From the sequence record PQ657772.1: DNA of 64,000 bases, one strand, 5' to 3'. This document shows positions 6,504 through 7,022 of this stretch, piece after piece. The notes under the pieces were generated by a model that was not told the DNA's origin, ran no database searches, and worked only from the letters and a program-made list of their open reading frames with translations. Numbering within the stretch: position 1 is the stretch's first letter; every line of letters starts with the position of its first letter. This DNA comes from Escherichia phage EC.P1. The position numbers and the translations under genes were made by a program.

Positions 6504-7022
6504 CTACCATTTCAAAAATTCATTTACATCTAGTTTATACTTCAAAGAATCAACCATATGCAAATCAATCAGGAACAAACAATACGAAGCCACTGAACTA
6601 CCACGCCCAAGACCCCAAAAAATATTGTGCTCTTCCATATAATCAACTAACCAGATCATACATCTTAAAAGCTTAGTCATGTTGTAATGTTCAAACAAAT
6701 CAATCTCATACATTACACGTTCACGGGCTTCATCCGATGTACATTTCTGTAAAAAGTACTCACGCAAGTTGATGTTATCGTACACTGGATCATAACGCCA
6801 TAGTTCATGGTTTTTATCATGTTCTATTGTATAATCCAGCATACGCTGTTCTAAACCAAATTTTTTACAATTATCGTTAAATTTCAATCGTTCCGGTTCA
6901 TCAATCTCCTGTAGCTGTAAGTACTGAATATCTGCACCACAGTTGATTGCATACACGACTGCATTAAGGTTACATTTTACATCACCATTGGGACTTATAA
7001 ATCTGTTTCCTTGTACTTTCAT
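6504..7022 (-). CDS. DnaE (Pol III alpha)-like N-terminal palm fragment
   Basis: C-terminus ...YEIDLFEHYNMTKLLRCMIWLVDYMEEHNIFWGLGRGSSVASYCLFLIDLHMVDSLKYKLDVNEFLKW resembles the DnaE segment ...GFPGYFLIV..GPGRGSGAGSLVAY..ITDLDPL..LLFERFL (recalled from memory); ORF ends where the catalytic PDFDVDF motif would follow. Confidence 0.45.
   Translation of the reverse strand: MKVQGNRFISPNGDVKCNLNAVVYAINCGADIQYLQLQEIDEPERLKFNDNCKKFGLEQRMLDYTIEHDKNHELWRYDPVYDNINLREYFLQKCTSDEARERVMYEIDLFEHYNMTKLLRCMIWLVDYMEEHNIFWGLGRGSSVASYCLFLIDLHMVDSLKYKLDVNEFLKW

Follow-up and report, generated by a model that had tools for sequence, protein, structure and literature searches.

A probable intein-free, two-gene family-C (DnaE-like) DNA polymerase core in Escherichia phage EC.P1

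One of the genes of Escherichia phage EC.P1, referred to here as the N-half gene, probably encodes the NTP-binding subunit of a minimal, DnaE-like (family-C) polymerase core that occurs in group 2.2 jumbo phages and is made from two genes without inteins. Its partner is a second gene, the C-half gene. Both lie in the window, which is the whole stretch of 64,000 nucleotides of sequence record PQ657772.1 that was analysed (Table 1). The N-half supplies the pol-beta-like palm through the GRGS motif and the helix that follows it. The C-half supplies the strand that comes next, with two Mg-binding aspartates, as well as the third aspartate and the core motifs of the fingers. The two polypeptides would come together without a covalent link, and the active-site sheet would be completed by pairing of the N-half strand before GRGS with the DIDID strand of the C-half. 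Such a heterodimer could serve as an auxiliary DNA polymerase beside the family-B replicase, for example in repair or in one-strand synthesis, as proposed by Iyer et al. (2021). A split minimal polymerase has been known since 2021, and the present analysis is a confirmation that adds detail. The added detail consists of the exact break in relation to Escherichia coli DnaE, the fixed stop position, the separate conserved neighbourhoods, and the finding that neither 160 loci nor billion-scale searches show adjacent or fused halves.

The N-half can be identified from several profiles. Residues 90-171 match PF07733, the Pfam family for the NTPase/palm region of bacterial Pol III alpha, with a score of 36.4 bits (E=5.8e-9; gathering score 23.9 bits), and the N-half relatives all carry PF07733 in precomputed annotations. 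PHROG 11127, which is annotated as 'DNA polymerase', matches at E=3.9e-85 over profile residues 1-171/171. A 32-member family profile that was compared with the PDB found the Pol III alpha chains of E. coli, Taq, and M. tuberculosis (E=0.0014-0.005). With hhalign of the family profile, residues 99-172 align with 321-394 of E. coli K-12 DnaE (E=5.8e-6), and the C-terminal FLKW is placed on FLNP 391-394. The spacing from GRGS to FL is 30 residues in both proteins (361 to 391 in E. coli DnaE). Columns that are invariant in the family are G137, G139-V144, S146, and Y147 (G-x-GRGSSV-x-SY). The AlphaFold (AF2) model has a pLDDT of 87.7, and its 10 best PDB matches in Foldseek are all Pol III alpha. 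In this model, the pLDDT goes down to 77 at residues 131-140 and DSSP gives no strand before GRGS. This is consistent with a missing partner strand, as the DIDID of the C-half would pair there.

A preliminary description of this DNA had reported the same ORF, and the C-terminal sequence that it quoted agrees with the translation. The resemblance to DnaE that it saw goes far beyond chance in Pfam, hhalign, and Foldseek. It had also considered that the ORF might belong to an unrelated family; homology instead puts the N-half in DnaE and the partner ORF in the next stretch of DnaE. Its title, in which the ORF ends exactly at GRGS, was imprecise, as the ORF end is 30 residues later. Its text was right in that the ORF stops just before the strand of PDFDVDF. 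The partner ORF that it named is present as well, with DIDIDF at residues 16-21.

GRGS is preceded by 138 residues in the N-half versus 360 in E. coli DnaE. Some relatives from IMG/VR (L010, L016, L035, L039, L047, L050, L068, and L069) match the family profile only from position 45-70, so that the first ~60 residues are absent or highly divergent there. The N-terminal alpha/beta unit of the N-half (residues ~1-60) appears to be dispensable or variable. The N-half also has weak matches to two PHROG profiles of ~460 positions, phrog_13169 'DNA polymerase' (339-409/463) and phrog_7513 (387-438/461), and the matched part sits near the C-terminal end of each profile. These could be N-terminal DnaE fragments (PHP and early palm) in other phages. 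If so, DnaE may have been split near the same site more than once.

For the C-half, the evidence from sequence is weak, with the family profile reaching E=2.4 against the PDB and the fingers domain PF17657 falling below the cutoff (E=0.04). The DnaE assignment of this half therefore rests on structure prediction and motifs. PHROG 11778, a family annotated as 'DNA polymerase', matches at E=2.2e-106 over profile residues 2-197/197. When the family profile was compared with the PDB, DIDID was aligned to MPDIDIDF 413-424 of Mtb DnaE1 and the KKPHAYAY motif to FNKSHAAGY 775-787 of the same protein. GYQKVDILS was aligned to GLVKFDFLG of DnaE with hhalign. Residues D16, D18, D20, K80, D82, K187, H190, and Y194 are invariant in the C-half family. 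In the predicted structure, ~190 of the 212 residues superpose on the palm and fingers of DnaE/PolC. The AF2 models of both halves are confident, and the predicted folds of both match only family-C enzymes (DnaE/PolC). From the alignments, both halves are under strong purifying selection at catalytic positions. No Pfam domain has been precomputed for the C-half family, which numbers at least 789 clusters at 90% identity, and the public labels of its members vary between 'hypothetical protein', 'putative membrane protein', and 'DNA polymerase'. This is an annotation gap, in which a minimal palm-plus-fingers fragment is recognised by no Pfam model.

Table 1. Positions in the window of the two polymerase genes, their motifs, and neighbouring or related genes.
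Feature	Position	Strand	Description
N-half gene	6504..7022	-	172 aa; ends FLKW-stop; PF07733, PHROG 11127, AF2 model
GRGS motif	6597..6608	-	N-half residues 139-142 = E. coli DnaE GRGS 361-364; checked by translation
114-aa ORF	6096..6440	-	PHROG 14844, no Pfam match; directly downstream of N-half
C-half gene	38198..38836	-	212 aa; remaining palm with three catalytic aspartates and much reduced fingers
DIDID	38777..38791	-	C-half residues 16-20 = E. coli D401-x-D403, two Mg-binding aspartates
K80-V-D82	38591..38599	-	E. coli K553-F-D555, third catalytic aspartate; predicted strand 80-85
RPGK	38381..38392	-	C-half residues 149-152 = E. coli RPGP 639-642 fingers motif
KKPHAYAY	38255..38278	-	C-half residues 187-194 = E. 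coli NKSHSAAY from residue 757, fingers motif
Virion-protein ORF	36823..38034	-	403 aa, listed TTG start
117-aa ORF	37858..38211	+	PHROG 11637; convergent to C-half, overlaps C-half 3' end by 14 nt
109-aa coiled-coil ORF	38814..39143	-	between zinc-finger-like protein gene and C-half
236-aa zinc-finger-like protein	39140..39850	-	PHROG 11058; N-terminal C2HC-type motif YKCKFCDKEF...HKC
Family-B (T4 gp43-like) DNA polymerase	56213..59218	-	PF03104 E=1.3e-22; PF00136 E=3.4e-21

Much of DnaE is missing from the pair. Together the halves have 384 aa versus 1160 aa in E. coli DnaE. The spacing from DxD to KxD is 64 residues in the C-half versus 152 in E. coli DnaE, so that ~88 residues have been lost at what we take, from the structure of DnaE, to be the position of the thumb. 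From RPG to KSH there are 39 residues versus 119, and KKPH (aa 190) is followed by 22 residues in the C-half, NKSH by 400 in E. coli DnaE. No PHP domain was matched in either half with Pfam. The split pair is without the thumb, most of the fingers, and the clamp-binding/HhH, OB, and tau-binding regions; it is a bare palm with core fingers motifs. As the thumb, HhH/clamp-binding, and OB domains are absent, processive templated synthesis is not assured.

Because the thumb and C-terminal domains are lost, the main live rival is a non-replicative nucleotidyltransferase heterodimer. The halves would still make up a single enzyme, namely a minimal pol-beta-fold nucleotidyltransferase and not a templated DNA polymerase, possibly with a role in non-templated tailing, primer or end processing, or making a nucleotide signal or modification. 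The missing thumb segment, the shortened spacing after RPG and KSH, and the absence of PHP, clamp-binding, and OB domains would all fit such an enzyme. It would also fit that the phage already has a complete family-B replicase, a clamp loader, a primase, and helicases. However, the invariant motifs RPG, KxHxxxY, and QxN that have been kept are elements of the DnaE fingers and go beyond a nucleotidyltransferase core. The superposition of most of the C-half on palm and fingers and the location of both genes among replication genes also speak against it. This explanation is regarded as unlikely, and a polymerase core is preferred.

Both halves are in one co-oriented block for replication and nucleotide metabolism that contains gp32 SSB, RecA/UvsX, helicases, primase, RNR, topoisomerase II, and clamp loader genes. 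The family-B polymerase is full-length (1001 aa, with exonuclease and polymerase domains) and is encoded 17 kb from the C-half gene. It is presumed to be the main replicase alongside the split Pol III alpha. In 81 loci, each half has its own, different conserved neighbourhood. In 69/81, the N-half is followed by an ORF of ~114 aa after a median gap of 15 nt; GroES is also encoded 3' of it in 63/81 and the clamp loader in 56/81. Around the C-half, a zinc-finger protein is encoded upstream in 64/81, a convergent ORF of ~120 aa lies on the opposite strand in 66/81, and genes for a virion protein (72/81), for primase (61/81), and for DnaB (43/81) are found as well. The small neighbours of both halves belong to PHROG families that have no assigned function.

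The 114-aa ORF keeps its position and orientation in those 69 loci, which come from diverse viruses, and it is a candidate for a functional partner of the N-half. Its equivalent in phage PA5oct is EST35_0289, and an ORF like the 117-aa ORF is also present there (EST35_0221). The two halves of PA5oct, EST35_0288 and EST35_0220, are arranged in the same way, and the virion mass-spectrometry note of that record is attached to neither of them. Overlaps of 4 nt and 23 nt between the stop and start codons of the zinc-finger gene, the 109-aa ORF, and the C-half suggest that their translation is coupled. The virion-protein ORF probably starts at an internal ATG (residue 79, MAHHGVF...), as judged from the virion-protein PHROG 14467, which covers only residues 79-403. 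Promoter-like sites in the window were not enriched over shuffles. A near-consensus sigma-70 promoter sequence is present at 6515..6486(-), with TTGAAA, 18 nt, and TG-n-TATAAT (extended -10) giving 11/12 matches. It overlaps the N-half stop codon and faces the downstream 114-aa ORF; site counts overall are not above the shuffle expectation. Terminator-like hairpins at 9773..9744(-) and 5754..5728(-) bracket a run of a virion protein, a 103-aa ORF, the N-half, the 114-aa ORF, and GroES.

It is conceivable, though quite doubtful, that the split is itself functional. The polymerase would then be active only with both separately regulated halves, so that its activity is gated in time or space. It would be a modular multi-subunit family-C polymerase in which a conserved neighbour is perhaps a further subunit. 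The 114-aa ORF and the zinc-finger protein might be candidate replacements for the lost thumb/DNA-binding domains. If true, such a multi-subunit, modular polymerase would be a kind of family-C enzyme that has not been described before.

The minimal polymerase core can also be followed through its distribution. Over the window, identity to Escherichia phage WPEC5 (381 kb genome) is 99.9%, and the phage is a Rak2/121Q-like jumbo phage. With tblastn, matches to the N-half came from 92 phage records and matches to the C-half from 95. The genus counts for N-half and C-half are almost identical (among others, Escherichia 33/33, Pseudomonas 11/11, Salmonella 8/8, and Erwinia 8/8). The two gene families are thus tightly linked across phages, as the pairing in the preliminary description presumed. 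In the window, the two genes are 31,175 bp apart on the same strand, with the C-half transcriptionally upstream. Where both positions are known, the halves are on the same strand and 14-182 kb apart (~14 kb in Xoo-sp13 and CM1; ~30-34 kb in 121Q, RaK2, GAP32, BF, and CBB; 44 kb in PA5oct; 163 kb in a 331-kb IMG/VR contig; and 182 kb in Atu_ph07). A search of 1.84 billion representatives with the N-half profile gave at least 468 clusters, counted at 50% identity, at E<=1e-30. The best 150 of the 468 all have a length of 157-196 aa and stop where the profile stops. A further 514 matches of this search had E-values between 1e-10 and 1e-30. In IMG/VR, 581 relatives of the N-half and 570 of the C-half were confirmed. 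The split polymerase is therefore widespread, yet its genes are often mis-annotated.

Fused or neighbouring halves were sought as well. When the 10-kb flanks of viral loci were scanned with HMMs of both halves, the partner half was within 10 kb or fused in 0/160. As positive controls, both HMMs recover the genes of the window (2e-68 and 5e-97). A chimeric profile that spans the junction was searched against 5.8 billion proteins, and no match was above the score of one half (maximum 133 bits). Its top 120 matches are all standalone N-halves (43-49% coverage) or C-halves (54-62% coverage). A search for a fused single ORF in related genomes with a comparison of the junctions, which had been put forward as a check, has thus given no fused form and a fixed stop position. 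From the lack of fused or adjacent forms, the split and the dispersal of the halves are taken to be ancient, fixed features of the family.

That the halves are never adjacent and have different, deeply conserved neighbourhoods might also be explained if they were exapted separately, for example as an NTP-binding regulator and a DNA-binding or metal-binding protein. This is very improbable. The GS motif in one half and the three aspartates in the other are invariant, yet neither half is a complete core. Such a division of invariant motifs only makes sense if the halves meet at one active site. The phyletic co-occurrence of the halves is also near perfect.

The position of the break can be read from one solved chain (Mtb DnaE1, 5lew), on which the N-half profile reaches as far as residue 407 and the DIDID match of the C-half starts at 413. 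This places the break inside the pol-beta-like catalytic core. In E. coli DnaE, D401 and D403 come seven residues past the point equivalent to the N-half stop. As judged from these alignments, the break falls in a short loop (E. coli DnaE 394-400), past the helix that follows the GS motif and ahead of the strand that carries the two Mg-binding aspartates. The stop codon of the N-half family is 0 residues past the profile end in 66/82 members and <=9 in the rest, and the C-half family has only 0-17 poorly conserved residues ahead of DIDID. No Hint/intein domain was found with Pfam in either half, even at E<=10.

These results bear on split-intein protein trans-splicing, for which the cyanobacterial DnaE is the only support. 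The halves abut within ~5 residues on the solved DnaE chain, the split site at DnaE 394/395 differs from the cyanobacterial one, and the argument of the preliminary description that neither ORF has room for an intein half is upheld. Trans-splicing is effectively refuted and its probability is close to nil. The same description had concluded that the pair reflects gene fission and not trans-splicing. The exclusion of trans-splicing stands; 'fission', however, presumes that the ancestor was fused, and the searches revealed no fused relative. Fission of a captured dnaE and an ancestrally split state, the one suggested by Iyer et al. (2021), are equally plausible, because there is no fused close relative to polarise the change. 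Finally, decaying pseudogene fragments of a captured host dnaE, or an artefact of assembly or of a frameshift, would account for the truncated sizes only and have next to no chance of being correct, being refuted by ORF boundaries that are the same in ~90 phages sequenced independently and in hundreds of contigs from metagenomes, by catalytic residues that are invariant at 30-50% overall identity, by the confident models of both halves, and by G+C contents of 0.349 and 0.365 versus 0.362 for the whole stretch.

The minimal polymerase core can be compared with three known systems. With bacterial DnaE/PolC (E. coli 2hnh; Taq 2hpi; Geobacillus kaustophilus PolC 3f2b) it shares the palm GRGS/DxD/KxD and the fingers motifs RPG and KSHxxY in collinear order. 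The family-C features GRGS 139-142 of the N-half and D16, D18, and D82 of the C-half are all present and invariant. The bacterial DnaE is one polypeptide of ~1160 aa, whereas the EC.P1 enzyme is two. In cyanobacteria, the DnaE catalytic subunit likewise comes from two distant genes (DnaE-n and DnaE-c). The cyanobacterial halves carry intein halves and are spliced to a full-length chain, and they are split elsewhere, in the fingers. The EC.P1 pair differs in having no intein, a break inside the palm, and a minimal enzyme. An active site of a replicative-type polymerase that is put together from two polypeptides, with the break within the catalytic palm, would be unusual enzymology.

The closest system was described in group 2.2 jumbo phages as a split minimal Pol III alpha (Iyer, Anantharaman, Krishnan, Burroughs & Aravind, 2021, Viruses 13:63, PMC7824862). 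As set out in the polymerase statement of that paper, one gene encodes the N-terminal protein, which binds NTP, and another, distant gene encodes the C-terminal protein, which binds Mg2+ and the template; a family-B polymerase is present alongside, and the other Pol III domains are absent (PMC7824862). The main text does not name the Rak2/121Q clade beside this statement (PMC7824862). It does name Atu_ph07 as a group 2.2 member (PMC7824862), and homologues of both halves were found in Atu_ph07 with tblastn. RefSeq labels genes 56 and 16 of 121Q as 'DNA polymerase', and PHROGs v4 has families dedicated to the halves (11127 and 11778). No experimental follow-up on the split polymerase was found in literature searches. 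EC.P1 has the setting that is given for group 2.2, being a T4-like jumbo phage with a family-B polymerase, a gp32-type SSB, an RFC-type clamp loader, and UvsW/RecA genes. The split Pol III alpha has been put forward as a model of what an ancestral, modular Pol III was like. Against the account in that paper, the architecture of the EC.P1 pair is identical and there is no substantive difference.
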